Below are positions 478 through 60,276 of a DNA stretch of 64,000 bases, one piece after another; positions within the stretch are counted from its first letter, which is position 1; each line of letters opens with the position of its first letter. The stretch is from an uncultured Candidatus Saccharibacteria bacterium (GTDB taxonomy: Bacteria > Patescibacteriota > Minisyncoccia > Phycocordibacterales > SBAW01). The stretch covers positions 176,746 to 240,745 of the forward strand of contig CAZTNI010000001.1 of the NCBI GenBank assembly GCA_964615415.1, written 5' to 3'. The notes under the pieces were generated by a model. The model was not told the DNA's origin. It searched no databases and worked only from the letters and a program-made list of their open reading frames with translations. Both the position numbers and the translations under genes were made by a program.

Positions 478-1059
478 ATGCATCCCAAAGAGGAAAAAAC
501 ATTCGTGCTCATAAAGCCAGACGGCGTCCGCAAGGGCCTTATTGGCGAGGTTATTAAGCGTTTTGAACAGCGCGACCTCAAGGTGATCGCCCTCGATATG
601 TTCCAGGCAACGCGCGAAGAAATGGACAACCACTATCCAAAAGATGATAAGTGGATGATGCGCATTGGTGAAAAAACGACTGGCACATACAACAAGTATG
701 GCTACGACATCACGAAAGACTTCGGCACAACCGACCTTCTGACGATCGGTAAAGAAGTGCGCAACTGGCTCGTCGATTTTATGACCTCGGCACCTATGGT
801 TAAGATGGTGGTGCAAGGTGTGCATGCGGTGGACATGGTGCGCAAAATCGTTGGTCCAACCATGCCGTACTTGGCAGAAATGGGCACTATCCGCGGCGAC
901 TATTCTGCAGACTCAGCTATTTCTGCAAACATGGAACGTCGCGCGGTCTATAACCTGGTGCACGCAAGTGAAACTCCAGAAGAGGCAAAACACGAAATTG
1001 AGCACTGGTTCGGCGCTCAAAATGTCTTTCAATACAAACGTTTTGGTATAGACGAGTAG
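478..1059 (+). CDS. ndk: nucleoside diphosphate kinase carrying a roughly 50-aa internal insertion
   Basis: N-terminus KTFVLIKPDGVRKGLIGEVIKRFE. C-terminal motifs FMTSAPMVKMVVQG, TIRGDY and HASE. 193 aa versus about 140 aa for typical Ndk. Confidence 0.85.
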   Translation: MHPKEEKTFVLIKPDGVRKGLIGEVIKRFEQRDLKVIALDMFQATREEMDNHYPKDDKWMMRIGEKTTGTYNKYGYDITKDFGTTDLLTIGKEVRNWLVDFMTSAPMVKMVVQGVHAVDMVRKIVGPTMPYLAEMGTIRGDYSADSAISANMERRAVYNLVHASETPEEAKHEIEHWFGAQNVFQYKRFGIDE

Positions 1060-1063
1060 CTTT

Positions 1064-1137
1064 AAAAACACTAAATAAAGATAGGTCCTCGGTTCTCCTC
1101 GAAGACTCGGCCAGACCTCTCTTTCTTTAGTGTTTTT
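1064..1137 (+). repeat. palindromic repeat element, copy A (core GTCCTCGGTTCTCC ... GGCCAGAC)
   Basis: Outer inverted repeat AAAAACACTAAA (1064-1075) / TTTAGTGTTTTT (1126-1137). Core at 1085-1098. Begins 5 nt after the ndk stop. Same core at 27461 and 32518. Confidence 0.7.
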
Positions 1138-1144
1138 ACGCAAA

Positions 1145-23968: not shown

Positions 23969-24006
23969 AAAGAAAAAACCGCCAAATGGCGGCTTTTCTT
24001 TTTATG
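23969..24006 (-). terminator. intrinsic terminator of ssrA
   Basis: Hairpin CCGCCAAATGGCGG followed by a T-run on the minus strand, directly after the tmRNA 3' end. Confidence 0.75.
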
Positions 24007-24380
24007 TGGAAGTGGGCGGAGTTGAACCGCCGTGCAACACAAGTCCTCGTACACATCTACAGAAGATAGACTATCTTATTTTCTTGGACTCAATCGTAAG
24101 AGATAGACAGAATAAAATTGAGCTGCAGCTTCATAGTTTCAATTACTGAGCGAAGCGGTTCTCAGTAACTAGAGCCTGAAATATAACACTCGGTCTCCAT
24201 ACTCAGACACTCTGGAGCGAATGTGATTATGCGCGCGCTGTTGCGAACGATAGATCATTCACCGAGAAATACGGTGATTTAACTGATTTTGCAGTTATGG
24301 TTTGGCACATTTTTAAGAAGGTATGCCACTTCTCTCCTGCATGTAGGAAGATAATTGTATTGTCTAAGCCTGTCACTCCC
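24007..24380 (-). ncRNA. ssrA: transfer-messenger RNA (tmRNA, SsrA)
   Basis: Minus strand 5' GGGAGUG ... GUGUACGAGGACUUGUGUUGCACGGCGGUUCAACUCCGCCCACUUCCA 3'. T-arm GGCGG-UUCAACU-CCGCC identical to the E. coli tmRNA T-loop. Acceptor pairing GGGAGUG/CACUUCC with a G3:U70 wobble (Ala identity). CCA not encoded. Lies downstream of smpB on the same strand. Candidate tag ORF GCA (nt 89) ... ends FATARA-TAA at 24227-24229. Confidence 0.8.
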
Positions 24381-24559
24381 CGAAGTAGCACAAAAGATTT
24401 CCGGGCACTAAGTCGAGCGCGACGGCGCGAGACAGAGAAATTTCTTAGCAAAGAAATTTCGGTGACCGAGAATCTTTTGTGCTACATCGGGAAGGGCCTA
24501 GAGAATAAGTGTTCAAATGTGGCGGGGAACATATACGCGTTCCCCGCAGTATGGAAAGG

Positions 24560-24992: not shown

Positions 24993-25436
24993 TTATTCGT
25001 TTTTCAATGTCCTGCGCATTTCGCGCTCCGTGTCCCGCTTCTTTAAGACGGCACGTTTGTCGAATGCTTTCCGACCGCGCGCGGCTGCCACGCGCAGCTT
25101 TAATACATCTCCTTTATTATACACCGAAAGTGGCACTACTGTCAAGCCTTTTTGACCCTCATATTCGGCCAGTTTTTCTATCTCCTCCTTGGTGAGGAGT
25201 AGTTTGCGGCTGCGCTCTGGGTCGTAGTCGGTTGGCGTGTTTGCTGCCTGGTAGGGTGGCACCGACATGCCTACTATATATGCTTCGCCGCCGCGTACTA
25301 TTATATGCGCGCCGTCTAATTTTCCGTTCCCTCCACGCAGCGACTTTACTTCGAAGCCAAGGAGCTCTAAGCCCGCCTCGAATTCCTCGAGGACCTCGTA
25401 GTTAAGTCGCGCTTTTTTGTTCTCTATAAGAGACAT
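24993..25436 (-). CDS. smpB: SsrA-binding protein SmpB
   Basis: MSLIENKKARLNYEVLEEFEAGLELLGFEVKSLR ... typical SmpB N-terminus. Confidence 0.95.
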   Translation of the reverse strand: MSLIENKKARLNYEVLEEFEAGLELLGFEVKSLRGGNGKLDGAHIIVRGGEAYIVGMSVPPYQAANTPTDYDPERSRKLLLTKEEIEKLAEYEGQKGLTVVPLSVYNKGDVLKLRVAAARGRKAFDKRAVLKKRDTEREMRRTLKNE

Positions 25437-25464
25437 GCGCTCAGTATACCGCTATAGCACAAAA

Positions 25465-25473
25465 TGCTATACT
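25465..25473 (+). promoter_or_regulatory. extended -10 box TGCTATACT, 9 nt upstream of the ftsH ATG
   Basis: TGCTATACT-gcccctaca-ATG. Confidence 0.5.
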
Positions 25474-25482
25474 GCCCCTACA

Positions 25483-27435
25483 ATGCCAGAACAAAAAGAT
25501 ACCCAGGGTGGACCGGGGAACAAGCGCGGTCCTCGTAAACTGCCTCCTGTACCGAAGATGCCGCGTGGCGATTCCTTTTGGATTAACTTCGCTATGAGCG
25601 TCGTGCTCTTCTTGCTGCTTGCAGGGGCGTATACGTACTTTGTAGGTGCAGGGAAAGATACGCCGGAAGACATTCCTGTTTCGCAGCTTGCGACCGACAT
25701 TGTCGCAGGAAAGGTGACCACTATCGTTGTGGATGGCGACAACCTCGACATTACCTACGCGGACAAGACAGAAAAAACATCTAAAAAGGAGCCTGACACC
25801 GCGCTTACCGAAACACTCACTAACTATGGCGTATCGACACAAGCGCTCGGCAAAGTTGCCATCGACATTAAACGCCAAAGTTCGTGGCAGTTTTGGTTGA
25901 CCGCACTCGCTCCGTTTTTAGCACCGCTTCTCTTGATCGGATTCTTTATCTGGTACCTCTCGCGACAAGTGCGCGGCGCAGGCGTACAGGCATTCTCTTT
26001 CGGCCAGAGTAAGCCACGCTTAATCGACCCGAACGATGCGGGGCAGCGTGTCACGTTTAAAGATGTTGCAGGTGCAAAGGAAGCAAAAGTAGAATTGCTC
26101 GAAATCGTCGACTTCCTGCGTAATCCAAAGAAATTCCTCGACATTGGCGCGCGTATTCCGAAAGGTATTCTGTTGATGGGTGCGCCAGGTACGGGCAAGA
26201 CTTTGCTTGCGCGCGCAGTTGCGGGCGAGGCAGGTGTGCCGTTTTTCTCTATCTCAGGATCAGAATTCGTTGAGATGTTTGTGGGCGTTGGTGCATCCCG
26301 CGTGCGCGACCTCTTTTTAACTGCAAAGAAGGCGGCGCCAGCGATTATCTTCGTCGACGAAATTGATGCCGTTGGCCGCGTGCGTGGTACGGGTGTGGGC
26401 GGTGGTAACGATGAACGCGAACAAACTTTGAACCAGATTCTTGTCGAGATGGACGGCTTTGAGCCGAATGAAAAAGTTATCGTTATGGCGGCGACGAACC
26501 GTCCTGATGTCCTGGACCCCGCACTCCTTCGTCCGGGCCGCTTCGACCGTCGCGTGTTTATTGACCTTCCGGACCGTACGGACCGCCTTGAAATCCTTAC
26601 TATCCATGCACGCAAGAAGCCACTTGCAGAAGACGTTAACCTTGAGGTGATTGCAGAGCGCACGCCAGGTTTCTCTGGTGCCGACCTCTACTCCTTGATG
26701 AACGAAGGTGCGATTCTTGCGGCGCGCGAAAACCGCAAAACCGTTGCGCAGTTCGACCTCATCCGCTCTATTGAAAAAGTGATGCTCGGTCCGGAACGCC
26801 GCTCGCATGTCTTAAATAAAAAAGAGAAGGAAATTACTGCCTATCACGAAGCTGGCCACGCGCTTGTCGCGTCGGTGCTTCCATACGCAGATCCGGTACA
26901 TAAAATTTCTATCATCAGTCGTGGTCGCGCTGGCGGCTACACGCTAAAGCTTCCATTCGATGACCGTAAGCTCCAAAGTAAGCGTGAGTTCCTCGACGAT
27001 ATTGCAATGTCACTTGGTGGATACGTTGCAGAGCGTGAAGTCTTTGGCGATGTTACGACTGGACCATCAAACGACTTGCAAGTGTTGACCGCGCTTGCGC
27101 GTGACATGGTGACTCGTTACGGCATGTCGGAAAAAATGGGCACGGTAGCACTTACGGGTGATGGTGGTCGCGCCATGTTTGGTAGTGGTGTCGAAGGTAA
27201 AGAACACTCGGACAAAGTATCTGCAGAAATTGATAGTGAGGTAAAGCGCATTGTTGACGAGGCGTACGACAAAGCGACAAAGATTGTAAAAGACTACCGT
27301 CACGTGCTTGATGCTATCGCGAAGCGACTTGTTGAAGTAGAAAATATTGAACGCGAAGAATTTGAAACTATTCTTGTTGCGCACGGGATCCAGCCGAAAC
27401 GCAAACAAGACATAGAGCATCAGCCGATCGTATAG
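25483..27435 (+). CDS. ftsH: ATP-dependent zinc metalloprotease FtsH
   Basis: Two N-terminal TM segments. AAA Walker [24 protein letters not shown]. Second-region-of-homology motif. HEAGHALV zinc site. Confidence 0.95.
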
Positions 27436-27440
27436 ACTAC

Positions 27441-27525
27441 ATAAAACTCCTCCTGAAAAAGTCCTCGGTTCTCCCGTATCGGCTCGGAGCCTCTCGGGCC
27501 AGACTATTTTCATGAGGAGTTTTAT
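27441..27525 (+). repeat. palindromic repeat element, copy B
   Basis: Outer inverted repeat ATAAAACTCCTCCTGAAAAA / TTTTCATGAGGAGTTTTAT. Core GTCCTCGGTTCTCC at 27461-27474. GGCCAGAC at 27497-27504. Begins 6 nt after the ftsH stop. Confidence 0.7.
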
Positions 27526-27544
27526 TCTGTCTGTGAAATAGAAA

Positions 27545-27572
27545 GATCCCCCGGCCAAAAGGTCGGGGGATC
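27545..27572. terminator. intrinsic terminator
   Basis: Hairpin GATCCCCCGGCC-AAAAG-GTCGGGGGATC. Confidence 0.7.
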
Positions 27573-30797: not shown

Positions 30798-33005
30798 TTA
30801 CTCAAAATGCATGGCTTCTCTGCGAGAGGAGACTGCTTCTTTTAAGAGAGGGTGTTTCGTAAGCGTTTCGTCGGACTTTATTAAGGCGAGCGCCTCGGTA
30901 CGCGCAGCTTCTACAAGTTTGAGGTTTTTAATCGCTTCCATGCCGATGTCCGAGATGCCCCACTGACTTCTGCCGGAAAGTTCTCCGGGGCCGCGCTGCT
31001 GTAGGTCCATCTCGGCGAGTTCGAATCCATTTTTTGCTTTTGTAAGTGCTTTGAGGCGTGCAATCGTTTTTTCTCCCTGTGTTTCCGGACAGACAAAACA
31101 ATACGCTTGGTGAGTGGAGCGTACGACGCGTCCGCGTAACTGGTGGAGTTGCGATAGGCCGAAGCGTTCGGCGCCTTCAATAAAAATCATCGTCGCGTTC
31201 GGCACGTTAACGCCGACTTCGACTACCGACGTTGCAACAAGAATATCTATCTCGTGGTTTGAAAAGCGCTCCATCACCGCGTCTTTTTCCGCAGGCTTCA
31301 TCTTGCTGTGAAGTATATCTATTTCGTAGTCTTGAAATACTTCTTTTTTAAGACGTTTAGCTTCAGCGGTAACAGACTTTGCCATCAGTGCAAACATCTT
31401 GTCTTTATCTGGCTCATCGATGCGCGGACAAATAACGTATGCTTGGCGGCCGGCCGCAAGCTCCTCGTGCATTTTTTTATACGCTTCCGTACGATCTTTC
31501 GTCTCGACAATCTCGGTAATGATCGGCTTTCTGCCCGGAGGCATCTGGTCAAGGAGTGTCAGGTCGAGGTCGCCGTAAAGGGTGAGCGCAAGTGTGCGCG
31601 GGATCGGTGTTGCGGTCATGGAAAGGAGGTGCGGCAGTTGCTCGTCTTTGCGCGCGAGCTTGCGACGTTGGTTAATACCGAAGCGGTGCTGTTCGTCTAT
31701 AACCACAAGTGCTAAATGTTTAAACTGCACCGACTTTTCGATAAGTGAATGCGTACCTATTACGACCGGAATCTCGCCATTCGCCACCCATTTTAAAAGT
31801 TGAGTGCGGGAAATATTAGTCGCTTCGTCCTTGCTGACTTTGGAAGGGAATTTAAAACAACCGCTTCCAGTAATAAGGCCTATATTAATTGGGAACTGTT
31901 CGAAGTATTTTATAAACGACTCGAAGTGCTGCTTCGCTAAAATTTCTGTCGGTGCCATGTATGCAACTTGTAAATTGCCAAAACTTTGGCCGCTCGGGCG
32001 GGTACGCACCGCAGCGTACGCAGCCGTGGCTGCGACGGCAGTCTTGCCTGAGCCTACGTCGCCTTCAAGGAGGCGCGACATAGGGTGACCGCTCCTCATG
32101 TCTTTAAGGATCGCGTTAATCGCTTTCATTTGCGCTGGTGTTGCAGTAAAGGGGAACTGCGAGATAAATTCCTCTACTATTTCTTGTGGTGCGTCGACAA
32201 CAAAACTTTTTTCATGCGCTTGCTCGGCGCGTTCTTTGCCGCGCGCAAGTTGGATATAAAATACCTCTTCAAATGCGAAACGCTTCCGCGCCGCTTCCGC
32301 ATCTTTTAGGTCTTGTGGAGTATGGATCCACACAAGTGCTGTTTTTAATGTGGGTAGGTTATATTTTTTTAAAATATCTGCAGGAATAGGATCTTCTGCG
32401 CTTTCAAGCACGCCCGCACCAAGTACACGCTCTATCGCGTGACGGAACCATAGTGAAGTAATCCCTCGTGTTTCTGGATATTGAGCGAAGATCCTCCCCG
32501 CAAGCTCCTCTGTAGAAGTCCTCGGTTCTCCGTCCTGTGGACGGCCAGACTTCTCCATAGAATCTTGCAGGGAGGATCTAAAGAGTCCGACATCAGTAGC
32601 AGAAATTTTTTCTAAGCGTGGGTTGGCGAGATACATTTTCTCGCCTTGGCCCGTCACTTTGCCCGTTGCTTTTACGAGTGTGCCATCTTGATACATCTTG
32701 GCGATGTATGGTTGGTTAAACCACATCAGTTTTATCCGACCGTTTTGGTCGCGTAGGAAGCCGGTCGTCGCAGGCACGCGGCTTTTCCATAACTTCTTAG
32801 CCTCAAGTTTTTCAAGCGTGCCGACAATAGACACTTCCGCTCCGGGTGTTAGTTCCGCGGTACTTTTTTCCTCGCCCGCCATCTCGTAGCGAAAGGGGAA
32901 GTGGTAGAGCAAATCCTGCGCAGTGGTAATCCCTAAATGCGAAAGCGCCGCCTTGTGTACCTCGCTCAGGCGGAAGAAAGCTGAAAGATTGCTTGACAAA
33001 TTCAT
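30798..33005 (-). CDS. recG: ATP-dependent DNA helicase RecG
   Basis: Walker A GDVGSGKT. DEQHRFG. MTATPIPRTLALTLYGDLD. Wedge and helicase domains. Confidence 0.95.
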   Translation of the reverse strand: MNLSSNLSAFFRLSEVHKAALSHLGITTAQDLLYHFPFRYEMAGEEKSTAELTPGAEVSIVGTLEKLEAKKLWKSRVPATTGFLRDQNGRIKLMWFNQPYIAKMYQDGTLVKATGKVTGQGEKMYLANPRLEKISATDVGLFRSSLQDSMEKSGRPQDGEPRTSTEELAGRIFAQYPETRGITSLWFRHAIERVLGAGVLESAEDPIPADILKKYNLPTLKTALVWIHTPQDLKDAEAARKRFAFEEVFYIQLARGKERAEQAHEKSFVVDAPQEIVEEFISQFPFTATPAQMKAINAILKDMRSGHPMSRLLEGDVGSGKTAVAATAAYAAVRTRPSGQSFGNLQVAYMAPTEILAKQHFESFIKYFEQFPINIGLITGSGCFKFPSKVSKDEATNISRTQLLKWVANGEIPVVIGTHSLIEKSVQFKHLALVVIDEQHRFGINQRRKLARKDEQLPHLLSMTATPIPRTLALTLYGDLDLTLLDQMPPGRKPIITEIVETKDRTEAYKKMHEELAAGRQAYVICPRIDEPDKDKMFALMAKSVTAEAKRLKKEVFQDYEIDILHSKMKPAEKDAVMERFSNHEIDILVATSVVEVGVNVPNATMIFIEGAERFGLSQLHQLRGRVVRSTHQAYCFVCPETQGEKTIARLKALTKAKNGFELAEMDLQQRGPGELSGRSQWGISDIGMEAIKNLKLVEAARTEALALIKSDETLTKHPLLKEAVSSRREAMHFE
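32489..32579 (+). repeat. palindromic repeat element, copy C, lying inside the recG coding sequence and translated in frame
   Basis: Outer inverted repeat AGATCCTCCCCGCAAG / CTTGCAGGGAGGATCT. Core GTCCTCGGTTCTCC at 32518-32531. GGCCAGAC at 32543-32550. On the recG strand it encodes RSSLQDSMEKSGRPQDGEPRTSTEELAGRIF. Confidence 0.7.
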
Positions 33006-41336: not shown

Positions 41337-41426
41337 TGGCGGAGAGGGAGGGATTCGAACCCTCGGAACCCTTTCGGGCTCAACAACTTAGCAGGTTGCT
41401 CCATTCGGCCGCTCTGGCACCTCTCC
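41337..41426 (-). tRNA. tRNA-Ser(GCU), type II
   Basis: Minus strand GGAGAGG-UG-CCA-...-GCAAC-CUGCUAA-GUUGU-(long variable arm)-GAGGG-UUCGAAU-CCCUC-CCUCUCC-G-CCA. G73 discriminator. CCA encoded. Confidence 0.85.
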
Positions 41427-43973: not shown

Positions 43974-44058
43974 GGAGAGATGGATGAGTGGTTTAAATCA
44001 ACAGTTTACTAAACTGTCGATCCGCAAGGATCCGTGGGTTCGAATCCCACTCTCTCCG
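43974..44058 (+). tRNA. Ser-like type II tRNA with an unusual anticodon loop UUACUAA (anticodon ACU)
   Basis: GGAGAGA-UG-GAU-GAGUGGUUUAA-AUC-A-ACAGU-UUACUAA-ACUGU-(16-nt variable arm GAUCC-GCAA-GGAUC)-GUGGG-UUCGAAU-CCCAC-UCUCUCC-G. All stems pair. G73 discriminator and 3-bp D-stem as in tRNA-Ser. Confidence 0.55.
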
Positions 44059-44104
44059 CATAAAGAAAGATATACGTGCCTCATCCGTCAGGTACTATAC
44101 AAAC

Positions 44105-56684: not shown

Positions 56685-57140
56685 ATGCAGAAAATTATTA
56701 AGCGAGGTTTCACCCTCATCGAACTCCTGGTTGTTATCGCTATCATCGGCATTTTGGCCGGCGTTGTGCTCGCATCTCTTGGTAGTGCGCGCTCAGGTGC
56801 AAACGACTCGAAGATCAAAGGTCAGCTCTCAAGCCTCCGTACTGCTATGGAACAATACTACGCAGGTCCTGGCGCAGGTACGTATGGTGCAACAGCAACT
56901 GCAGATGGCTGTACAACTGCTCCGTCAGTAGCTCCATGGAACCACACGCTCATCTCAGCGTTGGCAACTGAAGGCAATTACCCAAGCGGCGCTACATTGG
57001 TTTGCTACACAAGTGGCAGCGCATGGGCAGCACAGGCAACGCTTAGCGACAGCACCTTCTGGTGTGTTGATAGTACTGGCGCAGCAAAGAGTGGCGCATC
57101 AACCATGCTCGGTGGTACTGCTCCAGACGTAACCTGCTAA
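56685..57140 (+). CDS. type IV major pilin (prepilin with N-terminal cleavage/methylation motif)
   Basis: MQKIIKRGFTLIELLVVIAIIGILAG. Followed by a strong terminator. Confidence 0.9.
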   Translation: MQKIIKRGFTLIELLVVIAIIGILAGVVLASLGSARSGANDSKIKGQLSSLRTAMEQYYAGPGAGTYGATATADGCTTAPSVAPWNHTLISALATEGNYPSGATLVCYTSGSAWAAQATLSDSTFWCVDSTGAAKSGASTMLGGTAPDVTC

Positions 57141-57165
57141 TCTTTTTCTCTAGCAGTGGTCCTAG

Positions 57166-57196
57166 AAATCCCCAGCAAATGCTGGGGATTTCTTTT
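57166..57196 (+). terminator. intrinsic terminator after the major pilin gene
   Basis: Hairpin AAATCCCCAGC-AAAT-GCTGGGGATTT followed by CTTTTG. Confidence 0.75.
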
Positions 57197-57215
57197 GTGA
57201 GGTATACTGAGCACT

Positions 57216-57737
57216 ATGATACGAAAGGGATTCACCCTCATAGAACTGCTTGTGGTTATTGCGATTATTGGCATTCTTACCACTATTGTTACCGTTAATC
57301 TTGCGAATGCACGCCAAAGTGCAAACGACGTCCGTCGCCTGACGGATATTAAAAATATCCAGTTTAGTCTCGCTTTGTACTATAACGACAACCTAAAATA
57401 TCCTTGCGATATTTACACAAATCCGAGTGGTACCGCATGTCAGCCAGGATTCTTGGGAACATACATGGCAACTGTGCCGACTGACCCGGCTGGAGGGAAC
57501 TACAAATACGCAGCAATTAACCCTGCGGGCGCGACACTTACGTGTGCAAACGCAACTCGCTACCACTTAGGCGCAGTGATGCAGGTATCCGGCTCCTCGC
57601 TCCTTAATGATGATGCTGATAGTGCGTACTTTGGTGAATGTAGTTCCTCGGGCGGTGACTTTGCAGGTTCTTCCGCGGCGTGTTCAGGCACCACTGCTGG
57701 AACGGACCAGTGCTACGACGTAATTCAGAATAACTAA
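57216..57737 (+). CDS. type IV pilin (second pilin gene)
   Basis: MIRKGFTLIELLVVIAIIGIL. AGGTATACT box 7 nt upstream (leaderless). Confidence 0.85.
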   Translation: MIRKGFTLIELLVVIAIIGILTTIVTVNLANARQSANDVRRLTDIKNIQFSLALYYNDNLKYPCDIYTNPSGTACQPGFLGTYMATVPTDPAGGNYKYAAINPAGATLTCANATRYHLGAVMQVSGSSLLNDDADSAYFGECSSSGGDFAGSSAACSGTTAGTDQCYDVIQNN

Positions 57738-58541
57738 ATGGACTACTGGATGTTTCTTGCGGCAGGACTTTTTGGTGCAATCCTGGGAAGTTTTATAAAT
57801 GCATTATCATTTCGGTTTAATACCGGCACATCAATACTGACCGGCCGCTCTCGCTGTATGAGTTGTAACCACCAGCTTGCGGCGTGGGACCTTATTCCTG
57901 TTGTGTCGTATGTGTTGTTGCGGGGGCGGTGTCGGTATTGTGGGGCAAAAATCTCGCCGCAATATCCGCTCGTTGAAGTAACTGGAGCGGGATTGTCGGT
58001 CGGAGTTGCTGCACTGCATCCTGTAGCTGCTGCGTATGCATTCTGGCTTCTGGTTGCAATGACACTTTTGTTTATTGTCGTATATGACATGCGTCATACG
58101 ATTATTCCTACGAGCGCATCGGTGTTTTTAGGTGTTCTCGCACTCCTGTCTCTGTTTGTGCAGTTTGGAGAAACGTTTAGTGTTGGGGTTCCAACACTGT
58201 CGCAAATACTTGCGGGCCCTCTGTTGGCGTTACCGTTGTTCCTGCTCTCGTTTGTCTCCGGCGGGCGATGGATGGGGTGGGCAGACAGCGGTTTGGAGCT
58301 TTCGTTGGGATGGCTACTGGGCTTGTCGCTTGGCGCAACAGCGCTCATGGTTAGTTTTTGGATCGGTGCTGCTGTGGGGGTTGCTCTTATGTTGTCCTCT
58401 CGCCTAGTGTGGCGGCGGGGTAAAAAGCGCCTTACAATGAAAAGCGAGCTGCCCTTCGCGCCATTTTTGGTGTTGGGTGCAGTGTTCGTCCACTTTTTTC
58501 ATGTCGATTTTTTCTCATCGCTCACGATCTTTTTCTATTAA
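57738..58541 (+). CDS. pilD: prepilin peptidase PilD (A24 family)
   Basis: Cys-X-X-Cys pairs CMSCN ... CRYCG and the DxxxxIP membrane core. Confidence 0.85.
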   Translation: MDYWMFLAAGLFGAILGSFINALSFRFNTGTSILTGRSRCMSCNHQLAAWDLIPVVSYVLLRGRCRYCGAKISPQYPLVEVTGAGLSVGVAALHPVAAAYAFWLLVAMTLLFIVVYDMRHTIIPTSASVFLGVLALLSLFVQFGETFSVGVPTLSQILAGPLLALPLFLLSFVSGGRWMGWADSGLELSLGWLLGLSLGATALMVSFWIGAAVGVALMLSSRLVWRRGKKRLTMKSELPFAPFLVLGAVFVHFFHVDFFSSLTIFFY

Positions 58542-59154
58542 AAGGGGATTTACTCTGGTTGAGCTCCTGGTCGTGGTCGGCATTATGACCGTGCTTTCGA
58601 CAATTCTTTTGATACGTCATCAGCAGTTTGATAGTACATCGCTCTTGCGTACCGTTGCCTACAGTATTGCGCTTTCTGCGCGACAAACGCAGGTCTATGG
58701 CACCTCGGTGCGCGCGGTCGACTCTTTGGTGTCTAACCCAACCTTTGCGCCAGCGTATGGACTATATTTTGCCGGCACAGGCGCTACTACCTACACGCTC
58801 TTTGCAGATATAAATAACAATGGACAGTACGAGTCTGCGAATGAAACCATTCAAATTTTCACTCTTACTCGAGGGTTTACTATTACGGGAGCGTGCGCGG
58901 TGCTTGCAAACGACATTCGTCGCTGTACCGCAGCCTCGCTCGATTCAAGTGGCGGCGCAACGATCACTCACGTGCACATACTTTTTAAGCGTCCCAACCC
59001 CGAAGCGGTATTTACTGCTTATAACGGCGCATCCACTATTGCAGGCGACACGTACACGAAAGGATACGTGCAGGTTACCAGTAGTGGTGGCAACACGCGC
59101 AGTATGACTGTCACGAATACCGGTCAAATTAGTGTAGGGGCGATCGGAAGTTAA
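58501..59154 (+). CDS. minor pilin / pseudopilin
   Basis: Leader ... SIKRGFTLVELLVVVGIMTVL. Start ambiguous (overlaps the pilD 3' end). Confidence 0.65.
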   Translation: MSIFSHRSRSFSIKRGFTLVELLVVVGIMTVLSTILLIRHQQFDSTSLLRTVAYSIALSARQTQVYGTSVRAVDSLVSNPTFAPAYGLYFAGTGATTYTLFADINNNGQYESANETIQIFTLTRGFTITGACAVLANDIRRCTAASLDSSGGATITHVHILFKRPNPEAVFTAYNGASTIAGDTYTKGYVQVTSSGGNTRSMTVTNTGQISVGAIGS

Positions 59155-59157
59155 TAT

Positions 59158-59697
59158 ATGAATCGAGGATTTACACTCATTGAACTCATGGTTTCAGTAG
59201 CGATCTTTGCGGTCATCATGACCATTTCGCTTGGTGCCATGCTTTCAATCACGACAGCGCAGCGTAAGGCAGAGACACTGAAGTCTGTTATAGACAATCT
59301 GCACTTTGCGCTCGACGGCATGTCTCGCTCCATTCGTACTGGGTATAATTACAACTGCGGCAGTGCGTCAGGAGGAGACTGTACGAGTGGCGGCACAGCA
59401 TTTTATTTTACGGACGCACAAGGTCGTAGCGTAATCTATTGTCGCGGTAGCGGCACAACCTGTAGCGCTAGCGGTACCGAAATATTGCAATCCATTGATG
59501 GGAGCGCTTTTTCACCCCTTACTGCTTCAGAAGCAAAAATAGGAAACCTCTCATTTTACTTAGTAGGCTCAGCTCGAGGGAACGCGGTGCAGCCTCGGGT
59601 AACCATTACTGCAAGCAGTACCGTACAGGTAAGTTCAACACAGACAAGCTCATTTAATATGCAAACAACAGTAACGCAACGCCTGTATGACTTATAA
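59158..59697 (+). CDS. minor pilin / pseudopilin
   Basis: MNRGFTLIELMVSVAIFAVIMT. Confidence 0.8.
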   Translation: MNRGFTLIELMVSVAIFAVIMTISLGAMLSITTAQRKAETLKSVIDNLHFALDGMSRSIRTGYNYNCGSASGGDCTSGGTAFYFTDAQGRSVIYCRGSGTTCSASGTEILQSIDGSAFSPLTASEAKIGNLSFYLVGSARGNAVQPRVTITASSTVQVSSTQTSSFNMQTTVTQRLYDL

Positions 59698-60276
59698 AAA
59701 ATCACATAGGGGATTTACACTCATTGAAACACTTGTTGCGGTGTTGTTGCTTGCGACAGCTGTAGCGGGGCCACTGACGATCGCGTCTGCAGGGCTTTCT
59801 GCGGCGCTCGTGGCAAAGGACCAGATAGTGGCGACATATTTAGCGCAAGATGCGATCGAATACATACGCTACAAGCGTGATAGTGCGTGCCTGGCTGCGG
59901 GAGGAACAGCGTGTGCTTCTGGTACCTGGCTCTCAACGCTCTCTGCTTGTACAGGTGCGACAGGGTGTTACCTGGATTCAACTGAAAATGCTCCTGCATC
60001 ACCTACTGTGTGTCCCACAGGAGGATGTGTAAAATCAGGGTCTCAGTTCAGTACAAGTCGCTTTCTCTGTTATAGTCCGACCACTAACCGTTACCTCAAT
60101 GGTCCTACTCCTACAACGTGCTCCTCGGGCACGGTTAAGTCGCTCTTTGCTCGTGCGGTCGCTATTACGACGCCAGTATCAGGGAGTGCGAACGAGGCGC
60201 TTGTTGTGGTCACGGTATCGTGGACGGATGTAGGTGGTGTTATTCGTAGTGTAACCGCGAAAGAATCTCTTCTTAA

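Follow-up and report, generated by a model that had tools for sequence, protein, structure and literature searches.

A hairpin element lying in frame within recG belongs to a repeat family of Patescibacteria with a conserved two-block tip

We describe a 91-nucleotide (nt) imperfect palindrome, here called copy C, which lies in frame within the recG gene on a 64,000-nt stretch of DNA from contig CAZTNI010000001.1 of an uncultured Candidatus Saccharibacteria bacterium (the window, whose coordinates are used for the element throughout). Copy C belongs to a family of hairpin repeats that is dispersed over genomes of the ultra-small Patescibacteria, occurs in frame in many housekeeping genes and is united by a short two-block core at the hairpin tip. 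We consider it probable that the family is a selfish hairpin repeat family of the Rickettsia palindromic element (RPE) kind, that copy C is translated into a disordered loop of RecG, and that the tip is recognised in its folded state. The element may accordingly be selfish or near-neutral, or mobile, and its conserved tip is a putative recognition site for a factor acting on a folded single strand or a cruciform.

The inverted-repeat search placed copy C at 32489-32579, with arms at 32489-32520 and 32548-32579 (32 nt each, 84% complementary, 27 nt between them). The RNA folding energy is -47.8 kcal/mol for the plus strand (z -4.5) and -55.9 kcal/mol for the minus strand (z -6.5) against dinucleotide shuffles, and -23.3 (z -3.9) and -32.2 kcal/mol (z -8.0), respectively, with DNA parameters; none of 200 shuffles matched the fold for either strand with either parameter set. 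An earlier note, made from the letters of this stretch, had reported a 91-nt copy within recG on the opposite strand, open in the recG frame and encoding about 31 residues. We find it at the same place, where recG is the only long open reading frame (ORF), and the recG frame reads RSSLQDSMEKSGRPQDGEPRTSTEELAGRI(F), residues R143-F173, without a stop. Copy C is stop-free in five of its six frames (copies A and B, listed below, in one and two of six). Since 25% of mononucleotide shuffles of copy C are also open in the recG frame, the openness of copy C alone is weak evidence, and the signal above chance lies in the family, not in this single copy. The host gene, the parts of copy C and the two other copies of the window are as follows.

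30798..33005, minus strand: recG, ORF of 735 amino acids (aa), the host gene; Pfam RecG_wedge, DEAD, Helicase_C and RecG_dom3_C; 1GM5 is the top fold and sequence match.
32489..32579, plus strand (strand of the conserved core, antisense to recG): copy C hairpin, identified by inverted repeat, folds, covariance-model match (37.5 bits, E 2.8e-9) and translation.
32489..32517, plus strand: left stem arm of copy C; the recG strand encodes ..TSTEELAGRI(F), and the outer bases are native recG (R-I-F).
32518..32531, plus strand: core block 1 of copy C, GTCCTCGGTTCTCC; the recG strand reads GGA GAA CCG AGG AC, that is G E P R T.
32532..32542, plus strand: variable inner mini-hairpin of copy C, GTCCTGTGGAC; length and sequence vary among copies and subfamilies.
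32543..32550, plus strand: core block 2 of copy C, GGCCAGAC; the recG strand reads (AA)G TCT GGC C, that is K S G.
32551..32579, plus strand: right stem arm of copy C; the recG strand encodes RSSLQDSME, not present in element-free orthologues.
1063..1138, plus strand: copy A, inverted repeat with core at 1085-1116; covariance-model E 6e-12.
27434..27532, plus strand: copy B, inverted repeat with core at 27461-27504; covariance-model E 1.4e-16.

Copies A, B and C share only the tip core GTCCTCGGTTCTCC-[10-22 nt]-GGCCAGAC, in all three cases on the plus strand, and their stems are unrelated to each other. The recG element had been called a copy of the window's palindrome; this stands for the tip core, common to all three, and not for the stems or the palindrome as a whole. 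The pattern GTCCTCGGTTCTCC-N(3-33)-GGCCAGAC has three matches in the window against 0 expected by chance, and the covariance model R1, built from an alignment of 56 copies, detected copies A, B and C in the window and nothing else (E 1e-16 to 3e-9). Copy A is intergenic and begins 3 nt past the stop codon of ORF 478..1059, which by eye resembles nucleoside-diphosphate kinase; copy B, also intergenic, overlaps the stop codon of ORF 25417..27435, which by eye resembles ftsH. Directly after copy B, at 27547-27570, there is a GC-rich terminator-like hairpin (GATCCCCCGGCC AAAAGG TCGGGGGA).

The tip is near-invariant and asymmetric, reading (A)R-GTCCTCGG(T/G/A)TCTCC, a variable mini-hairpin and (C)GGCCAGAC-Y. 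When folded, the core presents GUC/GAC closing pairs, a 3x1 internal loop, a 2-bp helix, a 4-nt bulge and the variable mini-hairpin. The variable nucleotides between the core blocks number 10-33 across the family, and because blocks spaced so variably adjoin only by folding, the tip is likely to be read in folded form. In the alignment of 56 copies the only invariant columns are the 22 core positions. Within subfamilies about 10 nt of stem on each side of the core are also kept (e.g., ..ttttctCAG-core-CATTCgaaaa..), and the outer 15-25 bp of the stems are mostly locus-specific yet complementary. The hairpins of the family are 77-138 nt long (median 113).

We scanned a collection of species-representative genomes for the exact core and detected it in >112 genome loci (at least 112 among the matches listed), essentially all of them in Patescibacteria. 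Among the matches listed, the loci are labelled Paceibacterota, Nomura-, Adler-, Kaiser-, Ryan- and Vogelbacteria, Minisyncoccia and 'Saccharibacteria'. One match outside the Patescibacteria (L014) is without the hairpin and agrees with about the number that we estimate by chance. The exact core had no match in 2.9 million viral contigs, so no carriage by phages was seen there. At gathering thresholds Rfam recognised in the window only the transfer-messenger RNA (tmRNA) and three tRNAs; around copy C, with E up to 10, it gave only spurious microRNA-precursor hairpins and a 15-nt fragment, and no ribozyme or intron model. Comparison by eye with the hammerhead, hairpin ribozyme, k-turn, T-loop, signal recognition particle RNA and sarcin-ricin motifs gave no convincing match. 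A literature search by core sequence, by encoded peptide and by phylum plus palindrome found no description of the element, and the family is seemingly undescribed so far. Its density in the window is three copies per 64 kb.

The in-frame residence seen in recG is a property of the family. Among the matches listed, 75 of 119 exact-core copies (~63%, against 50% for the random-position control) are in frame within ORFs, a copy being counted as genic when its ORF is open for at least 70 codons on both sides. By the strand of the core, 55 of the genic copies are sense and 20 antisense to the host ORF, and all three sense and all three antisense frames are used, which shows that the core is conserved as nucleic acid and not as peptide. 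The commonest frame (37 of 75) gives VLGSPGP.., i.e., ..FSQVLGSPGPxxPARPFE..; other predicted insert-encoded peptides are, for example, ..VLGSPGPHTPARP.. and ..EKSGRPQDGEPR.. Hosts recognised by NCBIfam include PolA, UvrB, PcrA/UvrD, LigA, Tgt, TsaD, MnmA, PheT, UvrA and a NifS/IscS-type desulfurase, and most of these matches are broken into two or three stretches. Of the six frames, 3.6 are stop-free in genic copies and 1.6 in intergenic ones (p = 1e-9), and the arms follow the local base composition (44% GC genic, 28% intergenic). With the frame kept and stop codons depleted, ribosomes probably read through the genic copies, and the insert would be translated. The likeness to Rickettsia palindromic elements, which had been remarked on for copy C, thus holds at the level of the family, with its 75 of 119 copies in frame in unrelated housekeeping ORFs. 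Intergenic copies are often placed as copies A and B are: 27 of 41 begin at or just past an ORF stop codon, in either orientation, and the copies just past stop codons include 10 sense and 19 antisense ones.

Several observations concern the host genes themselves. The hosts among loci L001-L112 are rich in repair and replication genes (PolA, UvrA, UvrB, PcrA/UvrD, LigA, RecG), which may reflect either the tolerance of large multi-domain proteins or a functional link, and tRNA-modification and aminoacyl-tRNA synthetase genes are also found among them. One PcrA/UvrD host (L023:175-3522) by eye also holds an intein-like insertion of ~400 aa (..CLIKGTKI...VTHNC), and its NCBIfam match falls into three stretches.

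The recG ORF of the window is intact, with the RecG_wedge domain (Pfam) at residues 17-137. Its closest structural and sequence relative is T. maritima RecG (1GM5); phmmer aligned window residues 166-705 with 1GM5 residues 248-760 and paired window EELAGRIFAQYPETRGI with 1GM5 GEYVRRILPIYRLTSGI. In an AlphaFold2 model (63 sequences; mean predicted local distance difference test score, pLDDT, 76), residues 137-169 are coil with pLDDT <50, flanked by confidently modelled wedge-domain strands. The model therefore agrees with the suggestion in the earlier note that the insertion is tolerated as a surface loop, and it places the insert in a hypervariable linker that ends the wedge domain, predicted to be a surface loop compatible with the fold.

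The length of this linker, between G-LF and (I/L)F-A-x-YPE, ranges from ~12 to >60 residues among 60 close RecG homologues, and the ANP..SLW segment has 42-47 aa in element-free orthologues vs 60 aa in the window. An indel of roughly 30 aa had been expected exactly here. The position is right and the size is not: RecG gains a net ~13-18 aa, because the hairpin spans and replaces a native linker of 10-12 aa. Of 81 orthologue loci scanned with the covariance model, 19 have a match exactly here; 11 of these are antisense to recG, like copy C, and 8 are sense, and the rest of recG gave no match in the 81 loci. A distant clade of orthologues (57-61% identity) has a 45-aa segment without a trace of the element. 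The linker peptides differ (KSGRP..GEPRT in the window, SLA..RPED or KSS..GQTF in orthologues), and resemblance to the 31 residues is seen only where the DNA has the core, so that orthologues free of the element do not keep them, contrary to what the earlier note had named as a refutation.

The recG site has changed repeatedly among orthologues. Eight of them (L131, L135, L128, L140, L129, L138, L122 and L125, at ~nt 740-850 of each locus) have long hairpins at the same position with other tips, either ..CACGCTGCGAGCGGCCAAGGTGG.. or ..GGGAGAGATGAAC..CCCTCC.. (also given as TCCGGGAGAGATGAAC..CCCTCC), the latter in either orientation. A search of the window and of 890 kb of other Patescibacteria loci gave no further copy of either tip cassette. 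By eye, the outer stems look homologous whichever tip they carry, one arm having ..CAGAAG.. and its partner ..CTTCTG.., and the sister orthologues L118 and L125 have common outer stems and differ mainly in the tip. In a simple neighbour-joining tree of the recG orthologues, sense, antisense, other-cassette and remnant states are interleaved among close relatives. Close orthologues that seem empty (L193, the same as P0002, L126 and L130) keep core fragments (GAACCAGGA, ACTCTTCGGTTGGTTCTGC and GAAAAAGAC) and are for this reason read as secondary deletions, not as unoccupied sites. L193/P0002, the closest of them, was considered as an empty site showing that the whole C-terminal arm is native; we rejected this, since its DNA keeps GAACCAGGA where the core has GAACCGAGGA, and it too appears to be a secondary deletion. 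Only for the outermost R-I-F codons is a native origin safe to assume. We conclude that the recG insertion is old and not private to the source genome, and that it has since been inverted, replaced, degraded and deleted in different orthologues.

Stem pairing is kept by compensatory change. Of the six arm substitutions that we counted by hand between the window and L150 (88% identical), two compensate each other as a pair, a further two restore pairing, one disrupts a pair and the last is neutral. The compensatory pair changes GAG/TCT in the window to GAA/TTT in L150 at the cost of a Ser-to-Phe replacement. In the PolA/UvrB subfamily, 11 of 36 stem pairs are changed on both sides and 94% of cells are paired, vs 29-58% when the partner is slid by 1-3 columns; none of 500 shuffles reached the observed both-sides changes, the percent paired or the covariation score.

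The pairing also seems to grow outward into the host. The outermost arm bases of copy C, AGGATCT, encode R-I-F, native also in T. maritima RecG (RRIL), and the opposite arm AGATCCT (R-S-S) is its inverted complement and is not found in element-free orthologues. A native R-I-F paired with an R-S-S arm indicates that pairing has grown into host sequence and reached the first residues under constraint. The 5' arm of L144 and L137 holds AAAAGTCC(TCGG), a perfect complement of the core 3' half CCGAGGACTTTT. Such outward pairing and core copying are consistent with palindrome-perfecting template switching or conversion.

The inner hairpin and the stem next to it are much more alike among copies of one genome than between genomes (permutation p < 2e-4); clade-specific subfamilies, recent copying or homogenisation could each account for this. 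The UvrB copy L061:5412-5532 is near-identical over its full length, outer stems included, to the PolA copies L037:1446-1566 and L064:686-806. It is the only clear case of one full element in two different genes, and it ruled out the idea that only the tip moves. Other readings were rejected. L098 had looked like a recombinant of two copies, and it is a 519-bp contig of 0.74x coverage, probably an assembly artefact. A replication-strand bias (core-sense on the G-rich strand in 78 of 112 loci) vanished once the copies were split by context (genic sense 53 of 54, genic antisense 4 of 20, intergenic 24 of 41); GC skew tracks the strand of the host gene and therefore lends no support to single-stranded DNA transposition at replication forks. 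Nor do we take an asymmetry in folding as a sign that one strand is functional. Of 117 copies, 103 fold better, by 4-7 kcal/mol, as the strand antisense to the core, and the difference of ~4 kcal/mol in every class probably comes mostly from the constant core, the rest following coding-strand composition.

Taken together, these results suggest the following history. In an ancestor of this Adlerbacteria-like clade, the element would have entered recG where the DNA encodes a short variable linker, at the C-terminal edge of the wedge domain, and it may have persisted because it kept the frame, had no stop and was translated into a disordered surface loop. The hairpin would then have been kept paired by compensatory changes, through selection or through intra-hairpin template switching, with pairing spreading outward to the first constrained codons, and in different lineages the tip would have been inverted, swapped for other tip cassettes or partly deleted.

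Several points weigh against this reading. Neither a transposase nor another mobilising gene turned up, no search having been aimed at one, and we recognised neither a target-site duplication nor a target motif. Most copies lie at orthologous sites in many genomes, which implies long vertical persistence and rare movement, so that 'mobile' depends mainly on the one cross-gene case and on within-genome similarity, and the latter could instead reflect clade-specific subfamilies. Selfishness alone leaves unexplained the near-identical tips of old genic copies, in any frame and orientation, and of intergenic copies; constancy of the tip fits a function of each copy or active homogenisation better. 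That constancy is partly built in and inflated, because the scan that gave >112 loci demanded an exact match, and the recG orthologue set, unbiased in this respect, has variants at core position 9 and some degenerate copies. Translation of the insert is what we infer from the constraint on the reading frame. Several of the alignments were judged by eye, and most of the sequences are metagenome-assembled genomes, to which the taxonomy labels belong.

A bolder version of the selfish-element reading, which we put forward only tentatively, takes the two-block tip as the site of a structure-specific DNA or RNA enzyme system that inserts, inverts, homogenises and swaps hairpin 'cassettes' within coding sequence. 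If true, it would make the family a novel type of element, mobile or tended by the host, that keeps the palindrome's centre constant and not its ends, grows its stem from flanking host sequence, and keeps remodelling the surface loops of replication, repair and tRNA-modification enzymes.

The main rival to the RPE-like explanation is that the folded tip is a cis-acting site used by the cell, such as a site bound or nicked by a structure-specific DNA protein, or a hairpin recognised by a factor that binds or processes RNA, with coding regions merely accommodating the copies. It would better explain the universal conservation of the core, 22 nt kept near-unchanged in intergenic copies and in genic ones of all frames and both orientations, and the block spacing of 10-33 nt, bridged only by folding, also points to structure-specific recognition. 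Pairing maintained by compensatory change despite non-conservative amino-acid replacements, the placement of 27 of 41 intergenic copies at or just past stop codons and the richness of the hosts in DNA repair and replication genes are likewise in its favour. The free orientation (55:20 in ORFs, 10 sense to 19 antisense after stop codons), however, argues against a strand-specific mRNA signal, the density of three per 64 kb is low, and no known RNA family in Rfam matches. At recG the element has been deleted, degraded or tip-swapped in many close relatives, and therefore no single copy appears indispensable. On this balance we regard a host-maintained site as rather unlikely, while it is the alternative that we take most seriously.

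The remaining explanations have little to recommend them. An RNA-level intervening sequence or ribozyme, excised from the transcript or cleaving it so that the 31 residues are never made, would suit the high stability of the hairpin and the conservation of its asymmetric internal loop, and self-cleavage had been raised in the earlier note for the intergenic copies. The same note had taken in-frame residence as an argument against a self-cleaving RNA. From recG alone this argument is weak, because the core strand is antisense to recG mRNA; across the family it is sound, with 55 sense copies in intact essential ORFs and 20 antisense ones, the recG copy included, and, around copy C with E up to 10, no match to a ribozyme or intron model of Rfam. 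In all 75 genic copies the frame is kept and free of stops, with stops depleted relative to intergenic copies, which would be unexpected of an excised sequence, and we consider RNA-level removal very improbable. Equally improbable, in our estimate, is a protein-level module in which the encoded peptide (..FSQVLGSPGPxxPARPFE..) is useful to the hosts: the VLGSPGP.. frame is indeed the commonest among the genic copies (37 of 75), but the same core also stands in two more sense frames, in three antisense ones and, depending on the filter, in 41-44 intergenic copies, RecG and its orthologues read different peptides there, and the segment is predicted to be disordered by AlphaFold2. As for a chance palindrome or an assembly artefact in a hypervariable linker, the non-significant openness of copy C by itself and the metagenomic origin of most data would allow it, but three core matches in the window against none expected, fold z-scores of -3.9 to -8.0, the same recG site filled in 19 independent assemblies and more than 100 other genomes with the element make it next to negligible.

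Other features of the window were noted. A 119-nt hairpin at 24376-24494 (33-nt arms, 85% complementary, 53-nt centre), without the family core, adjoins the 5' end of the tmRNA gene (24004-24380, minus strand). At 56701-59755 a 50-nt repeat is common to four ORF starts and by eye encodes a prepilin-type N-terminus (..GFTLIELLVV..), which suggests a putative type IV pilin gene cluster. Two tRNA genes, at 41340-41426 (minus strand, 87 nt) and 43974-44058 (plus strand, 85 nt), have in common an inverted match of 32 nt, T-arm included (41339-41370 and 44028-44059).

Comparison with known systems helps to place the family. Miniature inverted-repeat transposable elements, or MITEs, are small non-coding inverted-repeat elements with many copies, sometimes fused in frame to ORFs (PMC10969869). 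The Patescibacteria element is similarly a small, multicopy inverted repeat with some copies in frame with ORFs. What defines a MITE is that its copies have conserved terminal inverted repeats and target-site duplications and obtain the transposase from a related insertion sequence, whereas the termini of our element vary between copies, its centre is conserved and its arms are complementary only within a copy. By eye, the recG, PolA and UvrB junctions have no consistent direct repeat, and the close 'empty' relatives are deletion remnants and not true empty sites. No parent insertion sequence was seen and no two cores flanked a gene in the loci inspected, which were not searched systematically.

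Repetitive extragenic palindromic sequences (REPs) are described as 20-40 bp, extragenic and carrying a GTAG or CGTC tag (PMC3733652). REPs and bacterial interspersed mosaic elements (BIMEs), with their REP-associated tyrosine transposases (RAYTs, of the Y1 HUH type), and the end hairpins of IS200/IS605 are dispersed in many copies and recognised as folded, imperfect, bulged hairpins and not as duplex; our element is likewise dispersed, and by analogy its recognition may depend on the fold. Like REPs, our copies are often just past stop codons (copies A and B in the window); unlike them, they are 77-138 nt long, mostly intragenic and without the GTAG/CGTC tag. Rolling-circle Rep origins have a conserved motif at the tip of a variable stem, and in them as in integron attC sites the fold outweighs the stem sequence and the stems co-vary; in attC it is the stem base (R boxes) that is conserved. 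The likeness to either would be one of recognition mode only, attC being the reverse of our element in what it conserves, and the element has neither a Rep protein nor an integrase or gene cassette associated with it. Introns and intervening sequences, free of any constraint on frame or stop codons and fixed in orientation to the host gene, differ from the genic copies, which keep the frame, are open and occur in both orientations. On the features compared, the element falls outside the MITEs, REPs, attC sites and Rfam ribozymes.

The nearest known kind is the RPE, with the same habit and a different phylum and architecture. RPEs are short dispersed hairpin repeats, often in frame in unrelated housekeeping ORFs, where they add fold-compatible extra peptides, and they encode a conserved peptide (PMC10969869). 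Our element resembles them in being palindromic, hairpin-forming and of roughly the 100-150 bp size (copy C 91 nt, family 77-138 nt), in being dispersed with a large share of copies in frame in unrelated genes (three copies in 64 kb; 75 of 119 genic) and, according to the AlphaFold2 model, in having its insert in a fold-compatible surface loop. This likeness was judged by the description of RPEs and not by sequence, and the host phylum is Patescibacteria, in contrast to Alphaproteobacteria. Copies within one RPE family align over their whole length. Here, except for one full-length subfamily, there is neither whole-length sharing nor a common peptide: only the 22-nt tip core and ~10 nt of stem are conserved and are read in all frames and orientations, and at one site the tip has been inverted and exchanged.

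In-frame protein-coding palindromes have so far been regarded as a Rickettsia curiosity, and we now find the same habit in a seemingly unrelated family across the Patescibacteria. Patescibacteria genomes are also small and host-dependent, suggesting that the phenomenon is a general outcome of reduced genomes. In housekeeping proteins of Patescibacteria (PolA, UvrABD, LigA and RecG among them) the family accounts for a class of insertions that had lacked an explanation and for profile matches that are split. It calls for caution in gene calling, alignments and phylogenies that use element-bearing proteins, and its 22-nt core provides a simple marker for these lineages. Beyond the habit shared with RPEs, the conserved centre, the co-varying stems and the inversion and exchange of tips at orthologous sites point to a factor that may read folded nucleic acid.

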